64,000 nt of DNA, from the NCBI GenBank assembly GCA_045047305.1, contig JASFYO010000002.1:107541-171540 (forward strand), written 5' to 3'. How positions within the stretch are numbered: the first letter of the stretch is position 1; the number at the start of each line of letters is the position of its first letter. Source of the stretch: Planctomycetota bacterium (GTDB taxonomy: Bacteria > Planctomycetota > UBA1135). The notes under the pieces are model-generated. The model did no database searches. It was given only the letters and a program-made list of their open reading frames with translations, and had not been told where the DNA came from. A program made the translations under genes and the position numbers. Below are positions 16,064-43,150 of the stretch, in pieces.

Positions 16064-16082
16064 ACCTCGAGATCCAGCCTTA

Positions 16083-25124: not shown

Positions 25125-25190
25125 GCTTAATGGGGCGTAGAGCCGTTTTCGCTAGCCGAGAAGTGTACCCCCTCCCAGCCAGCACGCCTA

Positions 25191-25880: not shown

Positions 25881-25887
25881 AGTAGCT

Positions 25888-26802
25888 TCAGCGGGAGAAC
25901 TCAAAGGCTTGGGTCGGGCCGGAGAATGGTGAAAGACTCGTGGAAACAGTATAGCGACGGGACATCTTCTCAAACCAGGCCCGGGCTTCAAGAGCGTCGA
26001 TTGGCTGGTTTTTCAATTCTTCGAGCAGGATGGCGACGGGCGGAAGCTCGGTTTCAGGGTCCAATACTTCGGTGACAAGCCCTACGCGCCAACTGCGGTC
26101 GCCTTCCAGCTGGAGCGGTCCAATCACCTGGCCGACGCTTGGATTCTGAAGTTGCTCCCCCAACATGCCGGGGAGATCACGACTCACGGGTGGGTAGCTA
26201 CCATCTGGGCTGGGGCCAGCCAAGAGGGACTCTTCCACCATCGATTGTGGACTGCGGCCGGCCTTCAGCCCCGAGGCCCAGGAGCGAGCTTGCGCCTGAT
26301 CACCAGTGACAAACCAATACAGGCCTACGCGCCCACTTTGGCGAGCGTCCGCACGCAGAACGATTTGATAAAGCAGGTTGTCTGCGAGGTTTTGGCGGTA
26401 CAAGGGCTGCACTTCCCGCCACGAGGCATCGTGGCGGGCCAGCGCCCAGGCATCTGGATTTGTGTTGGCGCCGAGTTGGGCAACCAGACCCTGGGTGAAC
26501 TGAGTAAAGGCTTGGTCGATTCGTGACTCAGGAACCGATAATTCAAGACGCTCCGCTTCCAGCCTTGCCATTTGCGTGCGTACCAAACTGCGGGTCAATT
26601 CGGCCGACTCCGCCGGAAATACGAACGCCATTTGCGCGACAAAGGCGCGCAAATTTAATCCCGCTCCTTGGACCGCTACCCCAGCAACGCTTTGGTTACG
26701 CTGGACGCGTGATGTCCGCGAGTTGGGGAGCTCGTGCGTCGGCCCAGCTTGGCATGAAAACCCAAGGAGCAAAAGGCCGACAACTGCGAGGCGCGGCGTC
26801 AC
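25888..26802 (-). CDS. Lipoprotein with SurA-N/degenerate parvulin-like domains
   Basis: Lipobox LGFSC, EAERLELSVPESRID, VGQVIGPLQ. Confidence 0.55.
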   Translation of the reverse strand: MTPRLAVVGLLLLGFSCQAGPTHELPNSRTSRVQRNQSVAGVAVQGAGLNLRAFVAQMAFVFPAESAELTRSLVRTQMARLEAERLELSVPESRIDQAFTQFTQGLVAQLGANTNPDAWALARHDASWREVQPLYRQNLADNLLYQIVLRADARQSGRVGLYWFVTGDQAQARSWASGLKAGRSPQSMVEESLLAGPSPDGSYPPVSRDLPGMLGEQLQNPSVGQVIGPLQLEGDRSWRVGLVTEVLDPETELPPVAILLEELKNQPIDALEARAWFEKMSRRYTVSTSLSPFSGPTQAFEFSR

Positions 26803-28274
26803 TTGAAGCTGACGCTGCGCCTAACCTGAATACCGTGGCATGTCGGGCACTTCTTTTTCCGCTGACGTGCTCCATTCTGCGACACATCCATAATCTCGAT
26901 ATATCCACTTCCAGCACAAGTTTGGCAGAAAGTGAATTTAACCGCGATGACGTTGTAGTCTCCGGAGAACTCCGAGTAGTAAGCCAACATCCACTGGAAT
27001 CGCGAGGTCACCGATGCACGGCGCCACCAATCTTCAGGGCTCACATCTCCAGCGCCACCGGATGCCGAACGACGCGTGGCCTGAATGTTATCGAGGTAAC
27101 GCTTCATGCGATCCTCCATTTCCCGTTGCTGGTCTGACTTGCCGTCGTCCTTCTTTTCCTCTTCATCTTTGAGACCAACCGTGGCTCTTTCTGCACCCAG
27201 AATCCAAGTTCCGTCATTAAACCCTGCAGTATGTGCGGTTGGTGCGGTTTCGAGACGGGCGAGCCAACGCGCGTCAATGCTGCCGAGATCCAAATGAGAA
27301 TCCATGTCCTTCAGCTCGATTAACAACTGCTGACGCACAAGCAAGGGCACCTCCGTCTCCAACCAGCTACTAAGCTGATCCATAGCCACTCCCTTCTCTA
27401 GCGACTTACGTTTAAGCACCTTGACCACCCGACTAAACCAGTGACGCTCAAGGTAGCGTGTCACCGCAGCATCGCGACGTTCTTCAAAACGATCGGCCAG
27501 CTGCAAGTACTCACCGCGTAAAGGTGAGTCGCTGTGCTCTTGATCAAACTCCGCAAGTAAGCCTTCAGCCACGGTGTAGCGATCACGGTGCATCATTTGT
27601 CGAACCATGTCGAGTTTTTGCGCCTCGACGCGGTTCGCAATCGTGTCCTCTAACTTTGCCAGCGCCCCTTCGATACGGTTCAGTAGGGCGGTATCGCCTT
27701 CAGCCGAGGCGATTTCTTGGCTCAAAAGATAATGCGCTTTCGCTTCATCCAGGGCGAACATGACTTCGAGCTCTTGCGCAAAATCGAAGTGCGCAAAACG
27801 ACTTGTGCTATCGATTTTTGGCACGCGCTCAGCGTAGTACTGCTCCGGAGTGAGAATGGTAGAAGCCTCCACCACCACTTCTTCTGGCGGAGCGGCCAGG
27901 CGTGACTTCGGCACTAAGGAAGTGGTGTCACGTACGCGAATTTCTAGGTTGCGGTTATCTTCGCGCAACAAGCGGCCAATGATTTCACGTCCGTTCTGCA
28001 ACAACACGCGGTGGGCAGTGGTCATCGGAACTTGAGTTTGATTACGATAACCGAAGTTGTCGCGCAAACGCTCTGCTTCGCCAGGAAACAAGTCCCGCCA
28101 GGAGAGCTGATAACGACCACCATCCAGGGCGGTGGTTAACACGAGCCCGTCGAGATCATGCTCCACGATGGCACCCACCAACAGGCGGCCGTCACGCAGA
28201 CGCACGATTTGATCTTCGCCATTTTGTTGAACGGCAGGAATCAGTAAAGAAGTAAGAAGTATGGCGAGCATCAT
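26799..28274 (-). CDS. Secreted hypothetical protein with a C-terminal CxxCxGxG...CPxCxG zinc-finger-like motif
   Basis: Signal peptide, two repeats of V-L-D/NGR-I/L-G, a helical middle region, and FCQTCAGSG...KCPTCHG. Confidence 0.75.
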   Translation of the reverse strand: MMLAILLTSLLIPAVQQNGEDQIVRLRDGRLLVGAIVEHDLDGLVLTTALDGGRYQLSWRDLFPGEAERLRDNFGYRNQTQVPMTTAHRVLLQNGREIIGRLLREDNRNLEIRVRDTTSLVPKSRLAAPPEEVVVEASTILTPEQYYAERVPKIDSTSRFAHFDFAQELEVMFALDEAKAHYLLSQEIASAEGDTALLNRIEGALAKLEDTIANRVEAQKLDMVRQMMHRDRYTVAEGLLAEFDQEHSDSPLRGEYLQLADRFEERRDAAVTRYLERHWFSRVVKVLKRKSLEKGVAMDQLSSWLETEVPLLVRQQLLIELKDMDSHLDLGSIDARWLARLETAPTAHTAGFNDGTWILGAERATVGLKDEEEKKDDGKSDQQREMEDRMKRYLDNIQATRRSASGGAGDVSPEDWWRRASVTSRFQWMLAYYSEFSGDYNVIAVKFTFCQTCAGSGYIEIMDVSQNGARQRKKKCPTCHGIQVRRSVSFK

Positions 28275-28708
28275 TTTTTCTGGCCCTCTAGGAAACGCGC
28301 GATGGGGACACTCCGCTCAAGCAGAAATGTCACACGAGTCAAAACACGATCTGGAGACTTGCGGTAGAAACGTAGTTCGGCGCGACGCAAAAAAGGATTA
28401 TCCCCTTCGGGCCGCACAATGAGGTCGTAACGGTAAGCAGAAGCACCTGGTACCGCTTCTCCTTTAAGTTCCCGTAGACCGGTTGTTTTGCCTTTTTCGT
28501 CGACAATCCAAGCATTCTGGCGGACGTATTCCACCAAAGGCTCGATTGCCGGGGCAAGTTCAGCATGAACCCGAGCATCCTGCTCCAGATTACCACCGAC
28601 TTGGAATAGCCCCAAGATTGCGGTGATGCCAAACATAAAAATGGCGATGGCAATCACCACTTCGATTAGGGTAAAACCCTGCATAGGTTGCTTGACGTGC
28701 AATTTCAT
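28271..28708 (-). CDS. Minor (pseudo)pilin, GspI/PilV-like
   Basis: Class III signal QG/FTLIEVVIAIAIF, 145 aa. Confidence 0.85.
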   Translation of the reverse strand: MKLHVKQPMQGFTLIEVVIAIAIFMFGITAILGLFQVGGNLEQDARVHAELAPAIEPLVEYVRQNAWIVDEKGKTTGLRELKGEAVPGASAYRYDLIVRPEGDNPFLRRAELRFYRKSPDRVLTRVTFLLERSVPIARFLEGQKK

Positions 28709-29628
28709 CGCAAACGCCTCCCCCCTGCAGAAACTGGGCTTTGACTACTGTAGCGCGAGGCAAAGAACACCTCACTGCGTGCCTTATGTTCCGCCGGCAA
28801 GCTGCCCCGCCGGCCGCGAGCAGTGATACTCAACGAAGGGAACTGGCCAGCCACGCTCACCCATTCAGAATCTATCAACACCATGTCGGGCATGCGACTT
28901 GGAGCATTTCCGCGCAATAGCATGGTGGTGGGTTCCTTGTTGATTGCATGATCTAACAGGGGCGGATGCTTTCGTGCAGTTCCGGACACATGTTCCACAT
29001 TGAGCTCTATGCTTGCAGGAAAGTGAAATGGCTGCCCAGCATCGACGCGAAACTTGGTCTTTTTCTCGCTGCCATCGTGGGCCACAAACTCCGCCCACAG
29101 CACACCATCCATTAGGACTAATCCGTTCCCGGAACGCAGCACTGCATTCGCAACACGCTTGTCCTGCAAAGGAGCCGATGGATCTTCCACCTTGGCGAAA
29201 CGGACCAAGCGATAAATCTTACTGCCCGGCGCTTCCGGGACCATGCACCACATCACTTCAACCGCAGCTTGAGCGGAAGGGTCGATCTCGGGCAGAGATG
29301 CGCCGTCGGCCAAAAAGCGCAAACGCGGCATGAAGGTTGAGGGTTGTCCTTCGGTAGCTGGTGGAATCTCCCATTCGTCTAAGACCATCCAGCCCCGGGC
29401 GCCCGTATGCATCGCGCGCAAGTCGCCACGGAATCGTTCGACGGTTGCAGCGTAAACCAAATCCCCGCGCCCGCGGCGTTCCCCGGCACTCCAAAGGTTG
29501 AGCACGGAATCCATGATTTGAATGACGAATGCTGACAACACTCCAAACAGGAATAGCGCGAGCATCACCTCTAATAGGGTCATGCCACGTTTGCCGCGGG
29601 CCTTCAAAGAAAGCGTGGCCGCATTCAT
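28705..29628 (-). CDS. Minor (pseudo)pilin, GspJ/PilW-like
   Basis: Class III signal RG/MTLLEVMLALFLF, 307 aa. Confidence 0.85.
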   Translation of the reverse strand: MNAATLSLKARGKRGMTLLEVMLALFLFGVLSAFVIQIMDSVLNLWSAGERRGRGDLVYAATVERFRGDLRAMHTGARGWMVLDEWEIPPATEGQPSTFMPRLRFLADGASLPEIDPSAQAAVEVMWCMVPEAPGSKIYRLVRFAKVEDPSAPLQDKRVANAVLRSGNGLVLMDGVLWAEFVAHDGSEKKTKFRVDAGQPFHFPASIELNVEHVSGTARKHPPLLDHAINKEPTTMLLRGNAPSRMPDMVLIDSEWVSVAGQFPSLSITARGRRGSLPAEHKARSEVFFASRYSSQSPVSAGGRRLR

Positions 29629-32600
29629 TCTGTGATCTCCTGACTGCGCTCAATCCGAGTATTGCCGAGATAATCGACTAGCAGATTGCGCAGGCGCGGC
29701 GCTTGAGTCCAGCCAACGGAGCGGAAGGTTGCAGGGTCAAACGCACCTGGCCCCCAATCGAACATCACCCGCAGGTCGAGGCGATCGCTGTAGAAGCCAA
29801 GCTTTTGATATCCGCCCTGGACAACATCTTTACCGCGCTGAAAAAGGGTTAAACCAGGCGTAGTGCGTGGGTCATCCTCCCAAGAAGCTGGCCCACTGCG
29901 TGCAAGAACACGAATGGAATGCGAGTTGTCCGGTAACTCTGCTTGGTATTGAATCCCGCGCCAGAATGCTTCCGGCTCATTGAATCCCAATTGCAGCCAC
30001 GCACCGACACCACTGTCAGACTCAGGGACATAGTTATCCATCCAGCGATTGGGGAAACTGTAGACCAGGGTGCCTACCTGATGATTCGCCGGTTGAGTTC
30101 CAAAACGCCCGCGCAGAATGCCTTGCCCAACTTGACCTTCCGGACCGCGGCGTTCTCGCGGCATAGCCAATCCACCGCCAACACCACGCATGGGTGTATG
30201 CAGCAATTCCGAATCGATCAGAAGCATGCCGCTACGTCCGAAGCCTAATTGGTTTTGAACTTGTATCGTCTCGGAATAGGAAGTGAGATTGCTATTGAGT
30301 ACCGAGGAGGCGCGACTATCCATAAGGCGCACCGTTGCGCCGGTGCTGTGGGCGCGGACCTCAGTGCCAAGGAATCCCCGACCATTCGATGCAATGGTGA
30401 ATTCGCCGTTGGTGGTATCGAGATCAGAGTAAGCGATGAGTTCGCCGTCGATATCTAGCAAGCCGCTAGCAGGGAGAATGCTTAGCCAGTCACCGGGTTG
30501 AGCATTCGGATCACTCACGCGGAATCCATCCTGATAATAATCGCGAGGATTTACCCGGACCGTGGACATGGTGCCTTGCTGCAGGTCTTCGCGCAGGAAG
30601 AACGCTCCCCGGGCAGTACGCACACCAGTTCGTCCCTGACCACCGACTGCAGTAAAAGATACTTCATCCACATAGCCCTGCAGGTTTGGCGAACCGCCAG
30701 AAGCAGTGCCGCCTACGACCAAGTTACCAAAGTTACGTGGACGTTCATGGTTGGGGAACTTGCTTAGACGACTGAACTCACGGCGATCACCACCTCTTGG
30801 AAGCGTGGCAAACTCCCCTACAGTATGGCCGGTAAACGGAATGCCTGTCGAGGCATCAAAGGCGACATAATTCACCCCCAAACGCACCCGGGCCCCATCC
30901 GGCAACGGGTCGGTTGGCGTATTCACGGGATCGTGTGCCCAACTCACCTCAAACCAAAATGGCAGGCTTTGTTCACCGGCTTGCATCACAGCAACGCGGT
31001 CGAAACGCCCAACGTAGCCATAACCCGAATCCACCAAGCCGTTCGGGAGCTTTTGCGTGTTAAACACAGGCACCATTTCTTCGCCAGCGGTATGCGCATG
31101 ATCATAAGTCCCCATCACACCACGAAAATTCAAGTTGTAGGCATAAGCCTCGTTCGGGAAGCTAGTCGGCTTCTTATGGCTAGCAAGGCGATCGTCACGA
31201 TCTTGAACGGGTTCACCTAGCCAGGTACGTCCAGGATTCGTAGGGTCCTGGGGGAGCCAGCTAGTGTTCATGCCGAGAGGCTCGGCAGCTGGATCGGGCA
31301 AGGAGAAATCCTCTTCCGCCAACGAGGAGTCAATGATTTCAGAAAAGGTGCGCGTTAAATGATCCCAATTGTCACGCACAAAGTGTCCTTGAAAAATATG
31401 GTCGTAGCGAATCCACTCCAATTCCTGAGGCCGGCTTTTGCTCCCAAGTTGTACGTAGGCACTGAACTCATCTGACCCAGGTTGATAAGTCAAATCAGAT
31501 GCGCCGGAAGCATGAACCGAGATTGGAATCACGGTAATGTTCAATCCCTGAACCTGGTTTAGGAAACGCCCATCAGTGAACTGAACGTCTCCGGAGTACT
31601 CCACTAGGTGAGTGATTCCTGTGGTACTAAGACTGGTATTCCGAGCGCCATCCCGTGGTGCATTGACAAGCCCGGGCAAATCTTGAACATTGCGCCGAGC
31701 GATGGTCAGGACATCGCCGGTACGAGCGGAATATTCAATAATCTCGACGCCGCCAATCGGGCTATCGTCCTCGGTATTGGTCGCTGGCACTGGGCCAGAA
31801 ATCAGATAGGCATAACCCCCATCCGACTGAAAAGCACCACTGTAGAAGGTGTCTCCAGGAATCCGATACATAGGTGCAAGCTCTAGAGGGCCCACGTAAG
31901 AGGCATTGATGCCCTTGCCTAAGTTCGGGATCACGAAACCTTGATTGGTTAGCGCGGTGATGTCTTCTCCACCAACGAAAACACTTGCCATCGACCAAGG
32001 TCCAACATCACCGGAAAGGCTTTTACCGCCAGGGGGAATGTTGCCTTGAATCAGGGCAGAGTAGCCGTACAACTCCACCGCACATCCGGCTGGGTGTTTG
32101 GTGTCGATTGCAAAGGCGTCTCCATCTGATTTCTCACGAATGGCACGTCCTCCGAAGTACTGCCCTGGAACTAAATCTGCATTAAATGATGTCTGGGTCT
32201 TCGATGTGTACTCAATAATCTCTGGCCCAATCCGGAGCACCCCGCGGTCAGGGAATCCAACGGTAGATTCCACGCTAATGACATTGCCTGTGGTAGAGGC
32301 ATCGTATTCGTTTAGCGCTGCAGTGAGATAAGTGAAGCCATCAATATCGCCACGCGGAACTCCGTCGATGAGCACCTGGACACCGCGGTGGGAGAAATCG
32401 CGAATCAAAACCGATAGATGGAACCAACGGTCAGCCAAAGGGTATTCCGCGGGATCAATGCGCACGATGATTTCTTCCGGCATACCTTGCAGATCATAAT
32501 CGTCCGGCCCGGCGGTGCCCTGCACCCGCACCACCAACTCCCCCTGCTCCATTGCGGCAGTCACACGGTTACGGTCGTTTTCAAAACCAGCTAGCTCGAA

Positions 32601-34526
32601 CAAAGTACCAGCCTGTAAATCTTCGCTAAAAAACCAAGCTTGAAAGCAAAGAGGTTCTACATCGCTAACATTCGAAACACCAGCTACGGTCCATTCCTCA
32701 AATAGGGGGCTGTATGGGCCCGTTTGAGGAATGTAACGCCCTAGCGGCGATGGGTCGAAATCAAAGTGTTGTACCCGGCCGAGACCATTGAAAGCAAACT
32801 GGTCGGACTCTCGCGCTGGCATCGGGATGACAGCGGAAGTTTCAGGGTCCTTCTCCGGAACCATACGTCCCGTTTCTTCCCATGTGCCGAGTTGAAGTGT
32901 TAAGCCATTCTCGGACGCGTCAAAATCTCCGGTGAGTGATCCCATGGAAACTGGCAGCGTCACCACACCATGCATGCCTCGCCCCCACCGGGTTGCGTCT
33001 TCTAACGTTTCTTGATCGCCAAAAAGAGACAACAGTTCACCAGCAGGGATGGCCGCCACATTTTGTTTGAACGATGCGCGTGCAAGCGTGCGACCTAAAC
33101 GAGAACGTACGGCTGCGTTGATGCGCTGGGTGTAATGATTACCACTGCGGTAACCAAACGAAGTCGTGCTTTGAAGCAGGCTACCGTTGTTGGGATCCAT
33201 ACTGTTTAGGTACAGCGCCCAGGAATCCGCATCGGAAATAGCGCCATCATCAGCTAACGGCTTCAACACGCGGTCCCACAAATCTTGAGGTCCATGCAAC
33301 GGCCGGGCCTGCACCACACGGGCTGCAAAGCGTCGAGCCTCAGCAGGGTTTACCCAATCGCGACTACGTCCAGCGTTCGCTGGGGCAGCGCCATTTGCAG
33401 CCTGACCGGCAAAGGAAATAGGAGGGCTTCCATTAAAGGCAACACCAAGCGCAAGAGCTTCTACGATTTCTGGTCGACACGCATTGATGTCAATCGGCTC
33501 GCGACGCATGGGATAGACGCGAGTGGTGAGTGCATCAAAATCGGTGGGAAGCGGTGCCGCCAAACGCAAGGTTCCACCACCTGCGGCAATCACTAAGCGG
33601 TCAAGCGGATCTCCAAACTCTGGCAAAAAACGAACCACCGTCCCCATGTTGAAGTAGCTGGCTTCATCCACCCGCACTCGATTGGGATGCTCTGGATCGA
33701 TCCGACGTACCGTCCAACTAGCTGGCTCCCAAATATCGGCGCCGTAAGCACCCGAACGCAACACGCATTGGTCCTGCAAGATTTGCAGGTCGGTTGCCGG
33801 TAACAAACTATCCGCTCCGCCGCCTAAATCGAAGGCGAAGGCGTCGGCAAAGAACTCTGGCGGCACGTGCCCCTCCGCTTTAAAGTTCGACAAAACTAAA
33901 GTTTGCACCCGGGGGTCTTGCACCAAATAACCCTCCAAGAAACGTAATTGATCTAAATCTTCCGGCTCTGATCCATCGGGAACCAAGTCGGTAAACGCGG
34001 TTTTCGTTTTACTCAGGTACTGAATCCACGAGGTCCCCACCAAGATAAAGCCTTGCTCTGGGAATCCTGCTGTGGAATTCACCGGAATGGTACCGGCGCG
34101 ATAGCTCACGTCGGTTTTGAGGAAGCAAGGATGCAGTAGGTTTTGCAACAACATCACTGGCGCTGTGGCCAAAGACACTTTGGCCTGCATACTCTCAATC
34201 TCTGCACCCCAAGATTCCGTTGAGCGCTCCCAAGCGGAGCCCAGAGCTTGCGGCATAGGGCCGATAGTGCTGCCATCCCACTCCGCAGCATCGTCCCATA
34301 ACGGAGTTGGGTCAGAGAAAGGATGGGAAAGCGATTGCTGGAATGCTGTAGCGAGGGAGGCAGACTCCACCGCGACGCGGGCGGTCGAGCGGCTAAAAGT
34401 TTCACTCGACGCCTCGGAACGCATGCGACTTGCAAACAGGAACGGGACGCCCATGGAGAACAACAGCGCCAAAGCCATCAGCACCACGATCAAGGCAGCG
34501 CCATCGCGATTCGTTATCTTTCTCAT
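29625..34526 (-). CDS. Giant GspK/PilX-like minor pilin (1633 aa) with LamG-like and repeated beta domains
   Basis: DG/AALIVVL class III signal lacking Glu5, as in GspK/PilX. GspK-like segments IESMQAKVSLATA and PIDINAC..EIVEAL, plus LamG motifs and internal repeats. Confidence 0.75.
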   Translation of the reverse strand: MRKITNRDGAALIVVLMALALLFSMGVPFLFASRMRSEASSETFSRSTARVAVESASLATAFQQSLSHPFSDPTPLWDDAAEWDGSTIGPMPQALGSAWERSTESWGAEIESMQAKVSLATAPVMLLQNLLHPCFLKTDVSYRAGTIPVNSTAGFPEQGFILVGTSWIQYLSKTKTAFTDLVPDGSEPEDLDQLRFLEGYLVQDPRVQTLVLSNFKAEGHVPPEFFADAFAFDLGGGADSLLPATDLQILQDQCVLRSGAYGADIWEPASWTVRRIDPEHPNRVRVDEASYFNMGTVVRFLPEFGDPLDRLVIAAGGGTLRLAAPLPTDFDALTTRVYPMRREPIDINACRPEIVEALALGVAFNGSPPISFAGQAANGAAPANAGRSRDWVNPAEARRFAARVVQARPLHGPQDLWDRVLKPLADDGAISDADSWALYLNSMDPNNGSLLQSTTSFGYRSGNHYTQRINAAVRSRLGRTLARASFKQNVAAIPAGELLSLFGDQETLEDATRWGRGMHGVVTLPVSMGSLTGDFDASENGLTLQLGTWEETGRMVPEKDPETSAVIPMPARESDQFAFNGLGRVQHFDFDPSPLGRYIPQTGPYSPLFEEWTVAGVSNVSDVEPLCFQAWFFSEDLQAGTLFELAGFENDRNRVTAAMEQGELVVRVQGTAGPDDYDLQGMPEEIIVRIDPAEYPLADRWFHLSVLIRDFSHRGVQVLIDGVPRGDIDGFTYLTAALNEYDASTTGNVISVESTVGFPDRGVLRIGPEIIEYTSKTQTSFNADLVPGQYFGGRAIREKSDGDAFAIDTKHPAGCAVELYGYSALIQGNIPPGGKSLSGDVGPWSMASVFVGGEDITALTNQGFVIPNLGKGINASYVGPLELAPMYRIPGDTFYSGAFQSDGGYAYLISGPVPATNTEDDSPIGGVEIIEYSARTGDVLTIARRNVQDLPGLVNAPRDGARNTSLSTTGITHLVEYSGDVQFTDGRFLNQVQGLNITVIPISVHASGASDLTYQPGSDEFSAYVQLGSKSRPQELEWIRYDHIFQGHFVRDNWDHLTRTFSEIIDSSLAEEDFSLPDPAAEPLGMNTSWLPQDPTNPGRTWLGEPVQDRDDRLASHKKPTSFPNEAYAYNLNFRGVMGTYDHAHTAGEEMVPVFNTQKLPNGLVDSGYGYVGRFDRVAVMQAGEQSLPFWFEVSWAHDPVNTPTDPLPDGARVRLGVNYVAFDASTGIPFTGHTVGEFATLPRGGDRREFSRLSKFPNHERPRNFGNLVVGGTASGGSPNLQGYVDEVSFTAVGGQGRTGVRTARGAFFLREDLQQGTMSTVRVNPRDYYQDGFRVSDPNAQPGDWLSILPASGLLDIDGELIAYSDLDTTNGEFTIASNGRGFLGTEVRAHSTGATVRLMDSRASSVLNSNLTSYSETIQVQNQLGFGRSGMLLIDSELLHTPMRGVGGGLAMPRERRGPEGQVGQGILRGRFGTQPANHQVGTLVYSFPNRWMDNYVPESDSGVGAWLQLGFNEPEAFWRGIQYQAELPDNSHSIRVLARSGPASWEDDPRTTPGLTLFQRGKDVVQGGYQKLGFYSDRLDLRVMFDWGPGAFDPATFRSVGWTQAPRLRNLLVDYLGNTRIERSQEITE

Positions 34527-35560
34527 TGCGCAATCTCCTGGGTAAAGCGCCCTATCACAAAGGAGGCGATTTCCTCATCAAACACCTCTAAGCGCACAGG
34601 TACGCCGGCGGAATGGAACTTCGGATCTAATGTGCCGTAGCGGTCGAAATTCACTTTGTCTGAGCCGAAGGTCAACTTGACGTCGATGGGGAGCTCTGGG
34701 CCGGATTCCGCAACACGGGCCCAAACGGTGAACTCATCTAATCGTCCGCGCCAACCTTGACTATCGTGTCCAAATCGAGCTGCTTCACGGGGTGAACCAA
34801 GCACCGGAGGAATGGCTACGCGCTTCACTTCCTTGCCGTCGATAACCAAAGCAGCGCTTCCGTCGGCAGCAACCAGTTTGATGTGCTGCCAACGATTCGG
34901 TTGCAGCGTTCCGACAGGGCTTTCGATGAGTACATCCTGAAACAACTCATCACCACCGTTGCCTGCTCGCAACGAAACCGCAAGGACGCCATTTTTGCGC
35001 ACCCGCATGTCGAGCAATCCCTCCCAACGAAGCAGTTCTCCTCCATTTGAGTCCAGCGCTTCGAGGTCGAAGTCGAGAGAAAATCCGTGTTCAAGCTGAG
35101 GGTTACCGCGGCCAGCAACGGTAATCGATCCGCCCTCACGCAAATCAATCCCCGTACCATAACGGCCAGTGGTTTCTAAACCAGCTGCTCCACTAGCCAC
35201 AACATCTTCTCGGCCGCGGAAGCGCGGTTCAAAAGTGGCCTCCATCGAGCGGCGATAAACGAATCGCCGCAATCGCTTGCTGCCTTGTTCCTTGTCGACG
35301 TCGACCACCATAACCGTGACGGGGTGTCCAGAGGTGCGTGCGCGATCACGGCTGCTTTCCAAAAAGGTTTCGACTGTGGACTGCAAACCCTTGAAGCCAG
35401 GATCCATACGATCGAAACCGGCTACGCCTATCCCCATGATGATGCCCATCAATACCATGACAAAAAGCATTTCAAGCAAAGTGTAGCCTGTGGCTCTACT
35501 TTGCTTGGCACGTAGAAGACTTGTCCTTCTACTGATCGCCGGTGTAGGAAAAGAGATCAT
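34523..35560 (-). CDS. Minor (pseudo)pilin, GspH/FimT-like, with an inserted LamG/ConA-like domain
   Basis: TG/YTLLEMLFVMVLMG, RDRARTSGHPV, NRWQHIKL..LVIDG..WRGRLDEFTVW, VNFDRYG. Start uncertain. Confidence 0.8.
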   Translation of the reverse strand: MISFPTPAISRRTSLLRAKQSRATGYTLLEMLFVMVLMGIIMGIGVAGFDRMDPGFKGLQSTVETFLESSRDRARTSGHPVTVMVVDVDKEQGSKRLRRFVYRRSMEATFEPRFRGREDVVASGAAGLETTGRYGTGIDLREGGSITVAGRGNPQLEHGFSLDFDLEALDSNGGELLRWEGLLDMRVRKNGVLAVSLRAGNGGDELFQDVLIESPVGTLQPNRWQHIKLVAADGSAALVIDGKEVKRVAIPPVLGSPREAARFGHDSQGWRGRLDEFTVWARVAESGPELPIDVKLTFGSDKVNFDRYGTLDPKFHSAGVPVRLEVFDEEIASFVIGRFTQEIAQ

Positions 35561-36146
35561 CTTCGGTCTCAAACAGACCATCTGCGCCTGCGGAGACTAG
35601 TTGGAAGCCACTTGGTTCATAGAAACTTCCGGTGCGCTCGCTGCGACCCGGTGAGACATTTTGCTCTTCATAGTATTCATCTTCGCCAGCCTGCACCGTG
35701 GCGCCAGTTTTGTTGCTGTAGTGCAAGCTCTCAAAGTAAACAATAGGATTGCCCCACTCATCGCCGATTTCAAAGAGTTCACGCGATTGCAGAATGGTTA
35801 AGTTACGCGTAGTTTCATCGCCGTCAGTGTTAACCAGCCAATCCTGTGCAGGCCGTTCACCGGAATATTCCGGGTCAAACAGAGCGAGGAACAAAGCCTC
35901 ACTATGCGAGTTAAAGCGGTTGCTTGTAGTCCCTTTTGGCAGGCGATCATCGGGGTACTCGCCTTCCATGGTGCGGTAGCTTTGCAACATGATGGCCAAA
36001 GACTGCATCCGAGCTTTTGCTGCCCGCTCTTTGCTTTTACTAAACATGCTCCCTCCGACTCCTGCGAAAGCAGCCGCCAAAATACCGATGATGACCATGA
36101 CGATCATCAACTCCATGAGAGTAAATCCTTGTTGTTTGGTTTTCAT
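35529..36146 (-). CDS. Major pseudopilin, GspG-like
   Basis: QG/FTLMELMIVMVIIGILAA, GEYP, DEWGNPIVY, FQLVSAGADGLFETEDD. Confidence 0.85.
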   Translation of the reverse strand: MKTKQQGFTLMELMIVMVIIGILAAAFAGVGGSMFSKSKERAAKARMQSLAIMLQSYRTMEGEYPDDRLPKGTTSNRFNSHSEALFLALFDPEYSGERPAQDWLVNTDGDETTRNLTILQSRELFEIGDEWGNPIVYFESLHYSNKTGATVQAGEDEYYEEQNVSPGRSERTGSFYEPSGFQLVSAGADGLFETEDDLFSYTGDQ

Positions 36147-38836
36147 TGGACTGCGTAAATCAGTTCCACGTTATCTAGAGAAGCATCCACTGGCAAAGCA
36201 AGCGCGGTACGCACTAACAAGCCAGAAGCCATGACACCCGTTGGATTGCGCAAGCTACTCACGGCTTCGGAGTAAATCACTTCGTCGTTGAAGCGAACCG
36301 TAAGAATAGGTTGCTTGGGTTCCCGATTCACATGGAAGGAGATGCGTGCCGTCTCGCCCTCCGCAAGCCGATAGGCCGTTTGACCATTTTCAGGGCGCGT
36401 GCCGCGCATCATGCTCCACCCGATTGCGCCTTCACGATCACGGATGACGCGGAAAGACCAGGTTTCTTTATTTCGGTTCTGCAATGCAATATAGGCAGCG
36501 GCGTCGCCACGATGCCCATTCTCGATATGCAGATCTGCAACAAAATCACGGAAGGCCAAGCCTGGAACCGTGTAGTAAGCGCTAGTTTCGGCAGCTCCGG
36601 AATGCTCCCCTTGAATCAATAAAGACTGATTCTCTAAACGCGGCTCCACTCCGGCACGGGCACCAGTCTGTGTATCCCAGCCTGGCCGCAAACGTCGTCC
36701 ATCAAAAGAATCTACCCAGCGACGCATTTTGGCATGACTTAAAACACGGTCCTGCCAAGTTGCCGCATAGATGAACTGCAAGTCATCTTCACTCTCGCGC
36801 AGAGTATCTTGCAGATATGCAAACTCAGCAACGGCTGCATCTAAATCACCTTCTTGGTAAAGCACCATACCCTTGGCGTTTCGCGCAGCATTAAGGCTGG
36901 GATCCATAGACAAAGCCTGGTCGAATGCAGACATCGCGTCTTCAAGAAGATTCCGATGAAGTAAATTCAAACCATGACGCATCACCACTCCAGCCCACGC
37001 GGGAGCATCATTGGTATTGCGAACCCAATCCGGGAAGGCCTCTTCCAAGCTACGGAAAGCGACTTCAGCACGCCCGTAGGATGCTTCGGTGTAAAGCAAG
37101 TCTGCGAACTCAGCAAGAATTCCGGCGCAAACTGGAGCAGTACGCACCAAGTCTTGCAGGCCAAGCCGGGCGCCTTCTAAATCGCCATCGCGTGCAGCCC
37201 AATGCACTTGCAGATAGCGGCTGTAGAGGTGACGTGGAGAAAGTTCAAGCGCGCTTGCCAATGCTTCTTGGGCCGCATCCGTCTCACCGATACGATCCAA
37301 CCAAAAAGCCTGTGCGGAAAGAGCAGGTGCAGCATCGAATGGAGTCGCGGCTGCAGAGGCACGTAAATCGCGAATAACCTCACCGGCAGCTCCACCATCC
37401 GCTGCTTCTGCGATACCGCGTAGGTAAAGCAAACCAGCATTCGCGCCGAAGTTGTCGATGGCAGTCCCTGCAAGCGCCCGCGCTCCAGAGAAGTCACCAG
37501 ACAAGTAGGTCGAGGCAATCAATCCGGACTGTGCCCGCATTGCAGCGACTTTATTATTGCCTGCAGCACGTTCTGCATTAAGGAAAGCCTGGTTCGCTTC
37601 ACTCCAATTCCCAGAGCGCATGGAAGCTTCACCTAAGGCAACGGCATTGCGTAGGGCGCTCTTAGAATTGCGTTGGCCTTGCATCCCCATGGCGCGCGTA
37701 AGAAGCTGACGGCCCTCCTCCACTCGACCGAGGTCAAGCATTAAGAGGCCTAACTCCATCGGAGCATTCGCATCCCCGGATGCGAGGTCGACCGCTGCAC
37801 GAAACTGGACCTCAGAATCCGCATCCAAGCCGATGCGACGTAGGATGACACCCATACGTACCCGCGGTCCTGCAGAACGCGCAAAGCGTCCTTTCTCAAC
37901 GGTTAATCCGAAGTCCGGCAAGGTCTCGCCTAGATTCTCACCTGCGAGCATCGCGTAGAGGGCAAACGCGCGGTCGAGGTCAAATGTCCGTTCCCAAACC
38001 TCACCGAGCAACATCCAATTGGTGACATCGTCGGGGGCAAGACGCACGGCATCGCGCGCAAGCTCATCCGCGTATCCAAAAGCAATCGGCTCGGCTAGAC
38101 CTTGATCCAACAGCCAATGCACAAACACACCAAGGTCTTGTACACGGGCGGCAGACATACGCGTCCGCTGATCACGCACGCCAAGTTCAATCTGATTGTG
38201 CAAGGTATCGGCGAATCCGAATCCTTCGTATTCCTCGGCATCGAACTCAAGCTCAGCGCGTTCCCGGCCAGTGTAAGGGTCTACCTGCTTAAAGCGCAGG
38301 GTGTCGCCCTTGACGTAATCAAAACGACCATCGCCCAGGAGGTAACCGTAAAAGGTTGCCAACGGATTCAGCCGAACCCAATCGTAAACCTTGCGGTACT
38401 GATCGTCTTGATCAGAAAAAGTGTCGGCAACCGATTGATCCAAGCCAAGCAGGTCGGTTCCATTGGAGCCTGCGTCCACCAAATCATCTAATCCACCGAG
38501 AATGGTTGGATTTGCGGCAAAGAGGTGTTCACTCCAATAAGAGGCCCCGCTGTCTGGGATTGGCGGTGGCATCAACACACCGAGAGGAGCCAAACTTGGG
38601 TCCGGCAGCTGCAGCGCATCGAGTGGCTCATCGGCGCTTGGTCGACGCAACAGATCACGCCGCGAGCCTTGCGCCGGAAGGGCCACAACTGGATTGGAAA
38701 GTGGCATTTGGAAGGCTTCTAAAGCTTTTCCGCCAGAGACACGTGGCGCACGTGGCGCCTCCTGTTGCATGAGGTTGTAAGTCATCAAGCTCAAGATGAG
38801 CAGAACAACAACCAGAATGATGGGTTCACGCTTCAT
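36143..38836 (-). CDS. Membrane-anchored multi-TPR protein (897 aa) with a C-terminal beta-sandwich
   Basis: N-terminal TM, Pro-rich linker, many TPR-like units (e.g. AMSAFDQALSMDP..ARNAKGMVLYQEGD), beta-rich C-terminus. Confidence 0.75.
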   Translation of the reverse strand: MKREPIILVVVLLILSLMTYNLMQQEAPRAPRVSGGKALEAFQMPLSNPVVALPAQGSRRDLLRRPSADEPLDALQLPDPSLAPLGVLMPPPIPDSGASYWSEHLFAANPTILGGLDDLVDAGSNGTDLLGLDQSVADTFSDQDDQYRKVYDWVRLNPLATFYGYLLGDGRFDYVKGDTLRFKQVDPYTGRERAELEFDAEEYEGFGFADTLHNQIELGVRDQRTRMSAARVQDLGVFVHWLLDQGLAEPIAFGYADELARDAVRLAPDDVTNWMLLGEVWERTFDLDRAFALYAMLAGENLGETLPDFGLTVEKGRFARSAGPRVRMGVILRRIGLDADSEVQFRAAVDLASGDANAPMELGLLMLDLGRVEEGRQLLTRAMGMQGQRNSKSALRNAVALGEASMRSGNWSEANQAFLNAERAAGNNKVAAMRAQSGLIASTYLSGDFSGARALAGTAIDNFGANAGLLYLRGIAEAADGGAAGEVIRDLRASAAATPFDAAPALSAQAFWLDRIGETDAAQEALASALELSPRHLYSRYLQVHWAARDGDLEGARLGLQDLVRTAPVCAGILAEFADLLYTEASYGRAEVAFRSLEEAFPDWVRNTNDAPAWAGVVMRHGLNLLHRNLLEDAMSAFDQALSMDPSLNAARNAKGMVLYQEGDLDAAVAEFAYLQDTLRESEDDLQFIYAATWQDRVLSHAKMRRWVDSFDGRRLRPGWDTQTGARAGVEPRLENQSLLIQGEHSGAAETSAYYTVPGLAFRDFVADLHIENGHRGDAAAYIALQNRNKETWSFRVIRDREGAIGWSMMRGTRPENGQTAYRLAEGETARISFHVNREPKQPILTVRFNDEVIYSEAVSSLRNPTGVMASGLLVRTALALPVDASLDNVELIYAVQ

Positions 38837-39615
38837 TGGAGATCCTCCCCGACAGCAATCTGCGGCATGACGCCAACCCCGAATTCCAACACGATGCGTT
38901 GTTCCATACGTTTTGCGTTACGTGGCAAGACCTCAAATGCAGTCAGCCCTAGTGGATTTCCACTTGCTTGTTCCGCAGCTAACTTACGCAAAAAAGGAGT
39001 TGCGCTCACTCGTTTGAAGACAATCTCCATGGTTACAGGAGTGATGTCTAGTGGCGATGCATGGCGCCCACTACGACGCCTTCTCTTTTGTGAAATTCGG
39101 ATTTTATCGACCTTGGAGGCTCCGTGATCCACCGCCATGTGAACCACACGATCCACCACGTCGAGGCCATGAAGAATGCGTTCGATCTGTTGTGGTTGCG
39201 AAGGCGAAACCGGAGGTAGACCTAAGGAGTCATCCACTTCACAGTTGTGACGCAAGGACCATCCAATGATTTCGTCGCGCAGTTCCCCTGTCAGCGAAAT
39301 GTAATGCTGAGCAGCTGGGGTTCCATTTGGAATCCGAAACCGTTCTCGAAACGGTGGCAGAGACATGCGTCCGAGCTCAGCGTTGCGTTCCTGCAAGGAC
39401 GCTAGGCGCTTCTCCAAGGTGGCCACTTGAGCCGCTCCGTACATACTGCTCGAGTTCATCTTGCGCCGCGTGCTCGAGATGGAACTTGAGCTGCGCCGAA
39501 AATCCTCTTTCGACCCACTGCTGGTGAAGGCAAGCAGGATGAAGAACGCCACCACTCCGCCGGCAAGGCCAAGAATGAAGCGACGGTGGGTTTGCCAGAA
39601 TGCGTCGAAATTCAC
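38833..39615 (-). CDS. PilO/GspM-like inner membrane alignment protein
   Basis: N-terminal TM, coiled coil, and a C-terminal ferredoxin-like pattern (ITPVTMEIVF..ATPFLRKL). Follows the pilM/N gene. Confidence 0.6.
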   Translation of the reverse strand: MNFDAFWQTHRRFILGLAGGVVAFFILLAFTSSGSKEDFRRSSSSISSTRRKMNSSSMYGAAQVATLEKRLASLQERNAELGRMSLPPFRERFRIPNGTPAAQHYISLTGELRDEIIGWSLRHNCEVDDSLGLPPVSPSQPQQIERILHGLDVVDRVVHMAVDHGASKVDKIRISQKRRRRSGRHASPLDITPVTMEIVFKRVSATPFLRKLAAEQASGNPLGLTAFEVLPRNAKRMEQRIVLEFGVGVMPQIAVGEDLQ

Positions 39616-41273
39616 TGATTATCCTCCGCGTCGAATTCTTCCCCTTCAGGCTCAGGCTCATTCATTAACTGGGTCCGAAAACTCCACTCAAAACTTTTTC
39701 CTCGTGGATTCGAACTCGGTTGCATGTCGCGGTCAGCATCGGCTAAGAGAGCGCCCATGCCACCGGCGAAAACACCAAAAGCCTGACTTGCGGCGCGCAC
39801 GTCGTCTTCTGCGCGTCCGGCAACTTCAAACACTGGGATTCGGCGCCCCTCGTGTCCGAACTCCTTACCGTCGGCTAGGTCCACCCGAATCGATTCAACC
39901 CACAAACTTTCTGGCAGAGAACGTTCCATGTACTGCAACAGGGCGTTGGTGCCAAATGAAATCGCAAAGCGCGATTCCAAGTCGTTATACAACAGGCTTT
40001 CCAAACGCACTTGCTCTAACAATTCGTTCGCGCGGGTGTTGCTACTTTCGATGCGTTTCTTACTAGCTTGCATCGCCTTCGATGATTTGCCTGCATCCTC
40101 AGCCAAACCGCCCATGATGATGAAATTTACCACCACAAAAGCAACCGCTGCCATCCCCATCAAGATGTTGAAGATTGTGCGCTCGGAGAACTCTTTCTTC
40201 GCGCGCGCCGCAGCGGTGAGAATTTCCAAGGCATAGAGCTCAGAATCTGCTGCACCGAGCCCCAAACCCAGGGCCACAGTGGCACCAGGTCCGTCAGCTT
40301 CCAACTGCTCGATTTCGTCTTCTGGCAAAGATTCCACGTCGACCATTTCGACAGGATTCCACACCTGAACAGGAACCCGCATGCGAGCTTCCAGGAATTC
40401 ACTAAGACCGTTGGTATTAGCGCCACCTCCGGTGAGCAAAACGCGGTCCAAAGTCAACTCACTCAAGCGCGCTTGCGCCTTGCATAAGGTCACCACTCCG
40501 CCTAGCAGAGTCGGCAAGCTCTCATACATTGGCATAAGAGGCCGGGTAACACGCTCGGCATCGCTACTAAGACGTTCGCCGAGAGCGAGACGCAAATCCA
40601 AGTGCTTATGGATCAAACTGCGCGCACGTTCGCTATCAATCTTTAGTTGACCGGCAAGAGTGCTGTCGCGTTTTTCTAAGCTAGTCGATACAGAGCGCGC
40701 AAAATAAAGCTCGGTGCCATGGACCAACGCCAAATCCAAAGTCCCTGCGCCAATGCTAGCAATCAAAGTAGTCGATGCCTCGTGATCGCCGAGCACTAGG
40801 TATGCGTTGTAGAGGGCAACCGCATTCGGAGTGAATGCTTTGACACTCAAGCCACCAAGATCGTTCATCGTGGACTCCAGCAAATCCTCGCGCACCAAGC
40901 TGAGTAGCATGGTGTCCTCGTCGTCGAGGCCTTTTGGCACCGGCAAGAGGTTGTAGGAAGATGCCAAACTGGAACCCGACCGCGATTCCACCTCGCGAAT
41001 TTCAAACTCCATCAGGCGCTCAAGTCGCCAATCCTCCACCGGAGGCACAGGCAAGTAACGCATCATCAAGTCCGAGCCAGTCAAACCAAGCTCGACTTGC
41101 CCTAACTTCTTCGCAGCACCAACAAGCACGGCACGGGCGGCTTCAACAGGAGATTCCTTGCCCTCTGGCGCCGCTGCCATGTAACGAGTTAAACGATGAT
41201 GGCCTTTACTTGCTTCGAAAGCAGCTAAACGCACCAAGGAGGTACCAAGGTCAATTCCACATCCTTTGGCCAT
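39612..41273 (-). CDS. pilM: PilM-PilN fusion (actin-like PilM domain + TM + PilN-like domain)
   Basis: GIDLGTSLVRL, IGAGT, VLLTGGGA, VALGLGL, then a TM, a coiled coil and LPESLWVESI. Confidence 0.8.
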   Translation of the reverse strand: MAKGCGIDLGTSLVRLAAFEASKGHHRLTRYMAAAPEGKESPVEAARAVLVGAAKKLGQVELGLTGSDLMMRYLPVPPVEDWRLERLMEFEIREVESRSGSSLASSYNLLPVPKGLDDEDTMLLSLVREDLLESTMNDLGGLSVKAFTPNAVALYNAYLVLGDHEASTTLIASIGAGTLDLALVHGTELYFARSVSTSLEKRDSTLAGQLKIDSERARSLIHKHLDLRLALGERLSSDAERVTRPLMPMYESLPTLLGGVVTLCKAQARLSELTLDRVLLTGGGANTNGLSEFLEARMRVPVQVWNPVEMVDVESLPEDEIEQLEADGPGATVALGLGLGAADSELYALEILTAAARAKKEFSERTIFNILMGMAAVAFVVVNFIIMGGLAEDAGKSSKAMQASKKRIESSNTRANELLEQVRLESLLYNDLESRFAISFGTNALLQYMERSLPESLWVESIRVDLADGKEFGHEGRRIPVFEVAGRAEDDVRAASQAFGVFAGGMGALLADADRDMQPSSNPRGKSFEWSFRTQLMNEPEPEGEEFDAEDNQ

Positions 41274-43021
41274 TAGTTTGCCTCCTGTTGAATCCAGCCC
41301 GAAAGCACTGGATAAGTACTCGCGAGTGCGTTTTTCACCCGGCTGCGATAATTCTTCGCCTTTTCCGCTTCCGCCGCGCGGAGTTCATCAAGGCTGGATT
41401 CTAATAGGCCAGATAACTCCAACGATTGACCTTCGATATTCGTTCCTGGAAAGCGGGAAGCTAGTTCCAAAACCTGTTGATTCAATCCATCGAGTTGGCC
41501 GATGGCGCCGACAAACAAAGCACCAGAAGCACGTAGTTGCAAGTTTGAGAATTCGGCACGCCCACTTTCAATCGCGTTGCGCGAAAGCACCAGTGCCTCT
41601 TGCACCTTGAGGTCGTCGAGCGGAAGTTCGCGCAATAAACGAGCAGTGGAGTTCAGCAACAAGCGCACATCGCCGGAGCGAGCGGCACGACTGATTTCTT
41701 GGGTCAAGCGAGCGGCATCGGTGATGACTTCACGTAAATCCCAAAGCAACTCCAACGAGCTGTCAACGGCCAACCGAGCTTCCACTTGTCCACCAATCAC
41801 CGTGCTTGGTTTTGCGGGGCGTAAAAGGAAGCGGCTAGCCCCTCCTCCAATCAACAAACCTGGGCTGTTGTCGACGCGAACACCACGTGCATTCCCAACA
41901 GGACCACCGTCTCCAAGGATGAGAAATGCACCGGCTTCATTCAGGGTGTCGGTGGCGGCAACTGCCAACTCGGCCTTGCCAGAAGCGGTAAAGGTCATGC
42001 CATTGGCGCTGGGCGCCCATGAGCCACCCTGGCCGTGTATCACCAATAAATCGCCCAAAGGTCCGGTTAGAAACAGGTTGGCGCCACTGCTAATAGCGCT
42101 ACCCGAAGGGGTCGACACTTTGCTCGGAGCACCCTCGGCAGCTTCTACTGTCAAAGCGGAGAGCGAACCACTACCCTCCAAAACCAAGCTTAGCTGAAAC
42201 CATTTGGCCTCAGCAGGAAGGGCCAAAGTAGAGGTTCCAGAGGACAGGTCCTGCGCCTCCCACCGTCCGATGACAACTTCTTGGTCTTCATCTTCACCCC
42301 AACTGATGACCGGACGAACGGAAAGATCACTGACGCTGGCTGAAATCGTTAGCGCACCGTCTTGCATTGGAAAGGAACGCGACAATCGGATTTCATTACG
42401 CCCTGAGGCATTTTGAACCCTTCCATCGGCCAGGGTCACACCTTTCGGCAGGGCCCAGGCTTCGGCCTCGTCAAAGGTGCCGTAATTTCCGATAGCGTCG
42501 AGACTTGCTACTGCGGAACCACCTTCCGAAGAACCGCGGCCCGGCTGATCGACTTCGGCATCGCTGCCGCCAAGAGTCCACCATGCAGCACCTCCTCCAG
42601 CGAGAATGAGAACAGCACCTAGAACCATAGTCAGCGGGCCACCTTTCTTTTTACCAGACATCGCTGCCTCGCGAGCGCGGCGGTGGACGTCGTCGTCGGC
42701 GGCATCTCCAGCAGAGGAAATCGAGGCGGAGGATGTATCTAGGTAACGCAAAGAGCAATCACCGAGGCGCATCTCGCTACCTGGAAACCACTCTCCGTCA
42801 TTCACTTGGACGCCGCCGGCCCAAGTGCCATTAGTCGAACCCAAATCGCGGAAGCGGAGTGTGCCGCCTGCGTCAATTTGGAGTTCAAGATGTCGGCCCG
42901 ACACGGAATCCAACGCCAAAACCAAATCGTTGGTCTTGGCGCGGCCGATGCTGTGTGTGCCCGGGCCGAGGTCTAGGACCTTACCCGTGTCGGGACCACT
43001 TAGGATCTCAATTTGAACCAT
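41273..43021 (-). CDS. FHA-domain single-pass membrane protein
   Basis: IGR..NDLVL..SVSGRH..DLGSTNGTW, TM LTMVLGAVLILAGGGAAWW, large C-terminal region. Start re-set to MVQIEIL. Confidence 0.85.
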   Translation of the reverse strand: MVQIEILSGPDTGKVLDLGPGTHSIGRAKTNDLVLALDSVSGRHLELQIDAGGTLRFRDLGSTNGTWAGGVQVNDGEWFPGSEMRLGDCSLRYLDTSSASISSAGDAADDDVHRRAREAAMSGKKKGGPLTMVLGAVLILAGGGAAWWTLGGSDAEVDQPGRGSSEGGSAVASLDAIGNYGTFDEAEAWALPKGVTLADGRVQNASGRNEIRLSRSFPMQDGALTISASVSDLSVRPVISWGEDEDQEVVIGRWEAQDLSSGTSTLALPAEAKWFQLSLVLEGSGSLSALTVEAAEGAPSKVSTPSGSAISSGANLFLTGPLGDLLVIHGQGGSWAPSANGMTFTASGKAELAVAATDTLNEAGAFLILGDGGPVGNARGVRVDNSPGLLIGGGASRFLLRPAKPSTVIGGQVEARLAVDSSLELLWDLREVITDAARLTQEISRAARSGDVRLLLNSTARLLRELPLDDLKVQEALVLSRNAIESGRAEFSNLQLRASGALFVGAIGQLDGLNQQVLELASRFPGTNIEGQSLELSGLLESSLDELRAAEAEKAKNYRSRVKNALASTYPVLSGWIQQEAN

Positions 43022-43150
43022 ACGTGGGATGTTAGAGCGCCGCATGAGGAACCCAGCGGGCAGGTGGAAGTCTAAGCCCGCCCTTACGTTGCGGGCAAAC
43101 CTCGTATGCCATCCTATCTCCACCTGCCGCTCCAGTAACCTTGACCGAGC

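Follow-up and report, generated by a model that had tools for sequence, protein, structure and literature searches.

Assembly of a pilus tip is licensed by a terminal β-strand that, in the accessible text of one study, is supplied either in trans by PilY1, a protein of about 1500 residues, or in cis by GspK (PMC13533445). For PilK homologs that occur without PilY1, the same text describes a cis donation of this strand across large insertions that precede it (PMC13533445). Modular pilins are a known class, and in the consulted sections of PMC8179133 the extreme multi-domain case has 860 residues and many more such proteins are expected to be undetected. The protein described here is encoded in a window of 64,000 nucleotides from a Planctomycetota bacterium (contig JASFYO010000002.1; positions count from the first letter of the window). 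It is a giant K-type (GspK/PilK) pilin of 1633 residues, about 177 kDa after predicted processing, recognized by its open reading frame (ORF) and a fold match at 29625..34526, on the minus strand like the operon around it. Among modular pilins this giant K is notable for its size, its nested build and its phylum-wide range. We consider it probable, though far from settled, that it is a pilin of the GspK/PilK fold that caps a retractile type IV pilus and has its own tip adhesin fused into the chain, which replaces a separate PilY1.

Pilin core and predicted returning strand

The ORF of giant K is intact over its 1633 codons, has no internal stop and shares four bases with the neighbouring ORF at each end. 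Its first 65 residues (34332..34526) comprise a class III-type leader and a long N-terminal pilin helix, modelled at residues 8-65, with Gly9 directly before the hydrophobic stretch; this glycine is kept in 195 of 207 aligned homologs. Giant K has no Glu at +5, and in the aligned homologs this position is held by Ala, Val, Ile or Leu, Glu not being among the four commonest residues, which is the signal of K-type tip pilins. A reading made earlier from the letters of the window (the sequence-only reading) had proposed a 1633-residue protein with a GspK/PilX-type class III signal, and this description holds. In the initial homology search 60 relatives of giant K, full-length or long, were found, and all of those that bear an organism name are Planctomycetota.

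The fold of the N-terminal part was compared, as a model of residues 1-845 (predicted local distance difference test, pLDDT, 83; predicted template modelling score, pTM, 0.79), with 48,161 chains. GspK (3ci0_K) ranks first with Z 13.1, a root-mean-square deviation (rmsd) of 3.3 and 233 aligned residues over the model range 38-495, and XcpX (5vtm_X) ranks second with Z 12.4. The core that is delimited in this way (33042..34415) contains the GspK-type alpha insertion and is interrupted by a barrel repeat, R1, and by a further barrel. The proposal of a GspK core at the N-terminus is thereby confirmed. With the same N-terminal model as query, a Foldseek search of the PDB remained empty at E 0.001 and missed GspK, which the wider aligner did find. 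The NCBIfam GspK profile NF037980 did not match giant K at E 0.1 either, and two distant homologs reached 16 and 13 bits, where the curated cut-off is 130 bits. As the fold matches GspK and the profile does not match, giant K has the GspK fold yet stands outside the curated type II secretion system (T2SS) family.

The last residues of the chain appear to return to this core. The terminal strand (1621-1633; 29628..29666) is predicted to pair in antiparallel orientation with residues 485-494 and so to complete the pilin sheet. In a covariation run on the 207 aligned homologs (effective number 184), five of the 17 strongest pairs tie residues 1621-1630 to 487-493 in antiparallel register. The corresponding band has a z of 1.27, where none of 12 control segments exceeds 0.59, and reaches 1.12 against at most 0.27 in eight row permutations. 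The segment controls are the fairer test, because a row permutation also removes the kinship among the 207 related sequences. It is by covariation only that the strand is placed in the sheet; in a model of residues 601-1633, which omits the core, the last 13 residues are poorly ordered. Because the last ten residues covary with strand 485-494, an insertion of about 1125 residues within the pilin sheet is likely, and the chain likely leaves the sheet near residue 495 and comes back near 1621.

Giant K thus resembles GspK and XcpX, the minor pseudopilin at the T2SS tip (3CI0 chain K and 5VTM chain X), in the core fold at 38-495, the absence of Glu5, the alpha insertion and the company of G, H, I and J pilins, and it resembles GspK also in the predicted cis position of the terminal strand. 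In contrast to GspK it is about five times longer, has two barrels within the core and carries about 1125 residues ahead of the last strand, and its gene order H-K-J-I differs from that of GspK systems. A large module that separates the acceptor sheet from the donor strand at the C-terminus, together with the lack of PilY1, is also a feature of Thermus ComZ and Caulobacter CpaL as presented in the available parts of PMC13533445 and PMC8179133, but their insertions are far smaller (CpaL has about 600 residues in total), and giant K holds a LamG domain, barrels and a beta domain without family match instead of a beta-solenoid. With PilY1/PilC acting on PilX/PilK it has in common a comparable size, a predicted tip position and a predicted role in strand addition; it differs in that head and pilin are one chain and in that there is no beta-propeller. 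Indeed, neither of the two models contains a beta-propeller, and the PilY1 profile PF05567 matched neither giant K nor any other protein of the genome, so that giant K does not belong to the PilY1/PilC adhesins. Since it is probably a natural and extreme fusion of PilK and adhesin, giant K offers a direct test of the recent model of β-strand licensing. Verru_Chthon cassette protein A (TIGR02600), which we take to be a giant K/PilX-type pilin of a four-pilin cassette in a bacterium of the Planctomycetes-Verrucomicrobia-Chlamydiae (PVC) superphylum, was considered as a relative and rejected: giant K scores 13.6 bits against a cut-off of 332, and the match covers no more than positions 1-48 of the 1296 in the profile.

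Barrel repeats and the split jelly roll

In the sequence-only reading giant K carries five to six degenerate copies of one repeat, and the five motif stretches quoted for them lie where they were placed to within a few bases. Four copies are firm by profile comparison, namely R1 (131-206; 33909..34136), R2 (731-824; 32055..32336), which is closest to cyanophage gp7 and matches 9in6_M with Z 7.4, R5 (1306-1404; 30315..30611) and R6 (1405-1493; 30048..30314). Their family profiles align with each other at E 5.6e-14 to 1.8e-5 in five of the six pairs, the pair R2-R5 being weak (8e-4), while the best pair that involves any of six control regions gave E 0.0026. When each class of copies was left out in turn, the held-out copies had medians of 17-33 bits, compared with a maximum of 8.7 bits in 2,300 shuffles.

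The remaining two copies are weak by profile: R3 (843-1000; 31527..32000), a probable decorated barrel, and R4 (1001-1158; 31053..31526), a probable barrel with a long, partly disordered insertion (low pLDDT at 1072-1095 in the model of 601-1633), obtain profile probabilities of 19% and 29%, the best control reaching 7%, and they score 0-4 bits with a combined module profile that includes the four firm copies. Despite these weak profiles they are probable barrels because of their invariant residues and their covariation. The hallmark residues of R3 are E928 (in 197 of 207 homologs) and R945 (183 of 201), those of R4 are E1037 (206 of 206) and R1135 (200 of 202), and the same Glu and Arg are near-invariant in R2, R5 and R6 as well. 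Both copies show a barrel-like covariation, with residues 1023-1027 of R4 covarying with 1149-1156. A divergent barrel within the core, R1b (264-342; 33501..33737), resembles phage tail-tube, tailspike and distal-tail barrels by fold (9n71_B Z 11.2, 8rk3_U Z 8.7 and lambda 8iyk_J Z 7.6); as a sequence repeat it was rejected, its profile probability being 11%. The count is therefore four firm copies, two probable ones and R1b as a barrel by fold only. Of the five to six copies proposed before, four align beyond chance and two, one of them the copy read from EWIRYDH (R4), are recognized by invariant residues and covariation only. The proposed consensus needs a similar correction, as its full tail, RG-GT...H..G..V, occurs in giant K of the window in R4-R6 only, in a variant form in R2 and not at all in R1.

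A second model, of residues 601-1633 (pLDDT 88.6, pTM 0.85), contains a LamG/pentraxin-like jelly roll (Z 13.8, rmsd 2.9, 146 aligned residues). The domain is split into a first part at about 601-730 (32337..32726) and closing strands at about 1250-1295 (30642..30779), with R2-R4 between them, and across the 207 homologs the first part covaries with residues 1250-1310. The Pfam family PF13385 scores above its cut-off in three of the eight distant homologs scanned and does not match giant K itself. Following R6, a C-terminal beta-rich domain (1494-1620; 29667..30047) serves as marker of the family; it has no Pfam match and no sequence match in the PDB, and it covaries with residues 540-620. The models and the covariation support a nested layout, in which the beta domain would enclose the split LamG domain and the LamG domain would carry R2-R4, followed by R5-R6. 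The sequence-only reading had the GspK core and the barrel repeats right and overlooked the LamG domain, the nested layout and a barrel in the neighbouring J pilin. If the tip binds glycans or surfaces, it is likeliest to do so via the LamG domains of K and of the adjacent H pilin.

Occurrence of the barrel and of the giant-K family

The barrel module has a length of 70-90 residues, and its copies share 15-30% identity. Profiles built from phage proteins recognize it: the repeat matches the PHROG families 2885, 708, 1101 and 4406, annotated as baseplate wedge (E 9e-14 and 7e-5), virion structural (5e-9) and tail (5e-5) proteins, which places it among phage tail and baseplate barrels, and matches of this type were obtained with all 11 members of the giant-K family that were tried. 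R2 matches cyanomyophage gp7 with a best E of 4e-4 among 280 phage records at E up to 10, and in S-SSM7 the barrel copy is the N-terminus of gp7, encoded in a gp25-gp6-gp7 block (37 bits). A module profile of 118 rows found two proteins in the PDB, the baseplate protein of JBD30 at residues 491-561 (E 9e-5) and a tail protein of phage Chi (E 5e-4). By fold, R6 matches chain 9in6_M of the Vibrio phage VP1 with Z 10.2, rmsd 1.7 and 75 aligned residues, and no paper identifying chain M of 9IN6 was found. A match to Rcc01698_C (PF23666) of the gene transfer agent (GTA) is weak (E 0.004; 18 bits, cut-off 27). Giant K accordingly shares sequence-detectable homology, consensus and fold with the small phage barrel of JBD30 hub gp53 (491-561), Chi, cyanomyophage gp7 and PF23666. 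Other searches added little: a single repeat searched by phmmer against the PDB found nothing, tblastn of R5-R6 against phages gave E 0.1 or worse only, R2 had one plasmid match (E 0.6), an atlas search with residues 1340-1495 returned viral clusters at chance level (0.79-0.80), and long low-TM Foldseek alignments to phage proteins among viral models carry little weight.

The 70-90-residue module is all that giant K shares with tail-tip and baseplate proteins, and it is also found in flagellar hooks and other bacterial giants. Scoring of 8,000 candidates with the module profile yielded 100 matches, among them nine giant flagellar hook proteins, FlgE by Pfam and in two cases checked as FlgE. 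These carriers (P0101 and P0110-P0117) have 1014-1739 residues and three to four barrel copies between normal hook ends, and one of them is named as Alphaproteobacteria TMED199. Their barrels score up to 54 bits, compared with 4 bits in 120 shuffles, and the best scores of the nine (44-54 bits) overlap those of seven phage-like proteins (36-55 bits). Because giant FlgE proteins score as high as phage proteins, the barrel is a shared extracellular module and not virion-specific. The earlier view that the repeat resembles modules of phage baseplates and GTA tail tips thus holds for the resemblance, through the PHROG, gp7, JBD30 and Chi matches and weakly for the GTA, and needs qualifying in that the module is not confined to virions; matches to virion structural proteins and a GspK core, both expected on that view, were found. 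A tree of barrels of this length and identity would not resolve the donor.

The barrel also occurs in planctomycete proteins of 6,000-8,000 residues and in an Ig-domain protein. The former are exemplified by L132 and L133 (G271:C10 and G261:C88), with frames of 6225 and 8478 codons, Calx-beta or G8 domains and two to three or more barrels. The latter is a membrane-anchored protein of 590-660 residues with one barrel (L128:7237-9006, L129:7752-9734 and L130:7500-9398); it occurs in a family of genomes without giant K (0/16), and in L129 and L130 it lies behind a pilin cluster. The 816-codon frame L131:6705-9152 (G222:C2) contains a single barrel and matched neither Pfam nor PHROG at the thresholds applied; it may be a tail gene of a prophage.

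Giant K itself is widespread within the phylum. The module profile has matches in 228 of 301 Planctomycetota genomes, and the family-specific profile of the C-terminal domain in 194 of the 301, mostly in single copy; by family, some are entirely positive and two have 0/16, and the giant-K family spans dozens of Planctomycetota families. The GC content at third codon positions (GC3) is 0.51-0.58 in the modules and 0.52-0.61 in neighbouring genes. Viral contigs yielded no relative of giant K (of 61 candidate viral stretches none was confirmed), and the neighbours are pilus and housekeeping genes, so that giant K is not a phage gene or prophage remnant. Given its presence in 194 of 301 genomes, its neighbour-like GC3 and the lack of a viral relative, the giant K gene is ancient and vertically conserved; a recent phage capture is rejected by the GC3 and the broad distribution. 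Two giant K genes stand in tandem in L137:4887-13781 (G290:C10), and several genomes of the same family and of family f19 hold two to six copies. Our literature search, which included planctomycete pili and covered mostly non-subscription papers without supplements, found no study of the giant-K family, and Dataset S1 of PMC8179133 could list such proteins; no RNA holder of the family turned up.

Operon, machinery and proposed role

The operon runs in the order FHA, PilM, PilO-like, TPR, GspG-like, H, K, J, I, 491-aa, 304-aa, ScpB and 600-aa. At its head are a conserved FHA-domain membrane protein (41273..43192; family match and locus comparison), a PilM-like protein of 553 residues (39612..41273) with a weak match to the Amuc_1101 family, a membrane-anchored protein of 260 residues (38833..39615), PilO-like by position only and without family match, and an 897-residue TPR protein (36143..38836). 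The probable major subunit is a GspG-like pilin of 205 residues (35529..36146; 42 bits, below the GspG cut-off). It is followed by the H-type (GspH/FimT-like) minor pilin of 352 residues, with a LamG domain above the Pfam cut-off (34523..35581), and, beyond K, by the J-type (GspJ/PilW-like) minor pilin of 307 residues (28705..29628), which has an N_methyl match and one barrel at 28741-28962 (module E 1.5e-14) and owes its J role to position and size, and by the I-type (GspI/PilV-like) minor pilin of 145 residues (28271..28708), with weak GspI/PilV matches below cut-off. Giant K thus shares its operon with pilins of the I, J and H types, of which I and J are labelled from weak matches and position. 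A conserved 491-residue protein with a DnaJ-type zinc-finger end (26799..28274) was found in 30 of 30 long loci. In the window, 23322-28274 holds this gene and the co-conserved 304-aa, ScpB and 600-aa (weak rotamase match) genes, which may be periplasmic folding helpers.

In 77 related loci, PilM, the G pilin, the 491-aa gene and ScpB are all present in the 30 longest. A set of 89 loci, biased because it was chosen from the best module matches, contained in every case a protein of at least 1000 residues matching the giant-K family (one weakly), with four firm copies in 55. A barrel-bearing J pilin comes next after K in 57 of the 84 distant loci with room for it. The genome of the window (2.83 Mb, 88% complete) holds six secretins, five ATPases of the PilB/GspE type, one PilT above cut-off and a prepilin peptidase; some of the secretins and ATPases can be assigned to one T2SS cluster, for which a separate 553-aa GspK-like gene lies at another place in the genome, and to a further pilin cluster. 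A PilB-PilT-PilB-PilC operon is not linked to giant K and has no pilins adjacent. PilM, PilB, PilT, PilC, secretin and prepilin peptidase all exist in the genome, and the giant-K operon contributes PilM only. In L201:624-16322 (G197:C6), PilB-PilT-PilB-PilC and then G-G-H-K-J-I form one operon, whose K is a rearranged, barrel-bearing protein of 1825 codons, and we infer by analogy from this locus that giant K may be functionally linked to the unlinked motor operon. Two orphan secretins of about 900 residues, weakly Amuc_1098-like, lie near 969-aa, YbgF-like and ExbB/TolQ genes in L144:1443-14549 (G000:C5) and are candidates for the outer-membrane gate of the giant-K system.

Several observations weigh against a retractile pilus with a fused adhesin. 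The giant-K operon lacks an ATPase, a platform protein and a secretin; linkage to a motor was seen in three of 166 loci, of which one alone is a full operon, with a K that is only distantly related. In several genomes (for example L109, L125 and L127) K stands without adjacent pilins, and PilY1 could be missing from the assembly, given that the genome is 88% complete. Also the GspG-like major pilin would fit a periplasmic pseudopilus as well, which leads to the alternative that K caps a T2SS-like pseudopilus and that its head recruits or pushes a substrate or gates a secretin and does not remain outside the cell. The GspK-type alpha insertion, the T2SS proteins as best fold matches and the two orphan secretins of the genome would agree with this, and so would the large load that a head of 177 kDa together with enlarged H and J pilins would be for a secretin; but the operon has PilM, a separate T2SS has its own K-type gene, and a PilT operon without adjacent pilins is available that in L201 is joined to a K relative. 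As LamG domains and such barrels otherwise decorate exposed structures, we think that the pseudopilus is unlikely, although it deserves to be kept in mind.

The barrels raise doubts of their own. JBD30 has a small six-stranded barrel that braces the hub and baseplate and is not described as receptor-binding in the available text of PMC11445458. This barrel is probably residues 491-561 and thus the probable equivalent of the module, and the residues best conserved in the barrels (Gly, Glu, Arg, Tyr and His) may have a structural function only. In RcGTA and JBD30, barrels with a similar fold bear the name oligosaccharide-binding, which in RcGTA derives from a likeness to a tailspike domain, according to the accessible part of PMC7296036. 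The barrels might instead form a platform on which a separate protein, secreted or of the fibre kind, docks as the true adhesin, in the way that the end of the GTA megatron holds tail fibres. The weak Pfam match is indeed to the C-terminal part of Rcc01698, whose residues 985-1304 are given as a fibre-binding domain in that part of PMC7296036, CofB is described as adaptor for the secreted CofJ in the consulted sections of PMC8179133, and the conserved 491-aa and 897-aa genes without clear role travel with the operon. We nevertheless find such a platform rather improbable, since the PF23666 match is below cut-off, no fibre-like gene was recognized in the conserved operon, and K and H already bear LamG domains. 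Least probable in our view is a domesticated virion-like contact apparatus that recognizes prey bacteria as phage tails recognize hosts. It would draw on the homology of the barrel to phage baseplate and tail-tip modules and on a close relative (L021) from a record named UBA1135, a lineage that the accessible text of 10.1101/817700 groups with the shapeshifting Saltatorellus clade, itself sister to predatory classes in that of 10.64898/2026.10.26.761892. The host of the window presumably belongs to this lineage too, and type IV pili are encoded by Saltatorellus genomes (10.1101/817700). However, the FlgE copies match the phage copies in score, no hub, spike or sheath gene was recognized in the operon, giant K extends over dozens of families of unestablished lifestyle, and pili did not come up when the predation preprint was searched by term.

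If giant K indeed caps a retractile pilus, its assembly could proceed as follows. Prepilin peptidase would cut after Gly9, and the helix would anchor K in the inner membrane. The body would then fold as nested domains, with the beta domain around the split LamG and its R2-R4, followed by R5-R6, before the last ten residues come back to complete the pilin sheet. Only after the whole head has folded would the completed sheet permit K to assemble with the I, J and H pilins, and the GspG-like pilin would polymerize beneath K, probably driven by the unlinked PilB-PilT-PilB-PilC operon. The barrels would likely be rigid spacers or extra binding surfaces.

What can be said of distribution is that a conserved, usually single-copy and probably surface-exposed machine occurs in about two-thirds of the sampled Planctomycetota genomes. 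Among the members of the phylum are lineages that change shape or engulf bacteria and whose attachment still lacks an explanation. It is conceivable, though we advance it with considerable doubt, that most sampled lineages share an undescribed type IV filament whose K/J/H tip bears LamG domains along with seven or eight barrels of the virion type, grabs other cells or particles (possibly prey) and licenses itself via a strand returned over 1100 residues, and that one barrel is common to phage tails, pilus tips and flagellar hooks. This small unnamed barrel of phage tails, pilus tips and giant flagellar hooks also provides a handle for annotating many hypothetical proteins.

Two minor observations concern other loci. 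A separate pilus cluster of the genome (L147; G000:C35:19000-35000) contains a tandem of three PilX-like genes, and in one of these there is a long insertion rich in His and Asp. In the window, 12434-19172 holds two tandem transporters of the resistance-nodulation-division (RND)/AcrB family behind a gene for a membrane-fusion-like lipoprotein.

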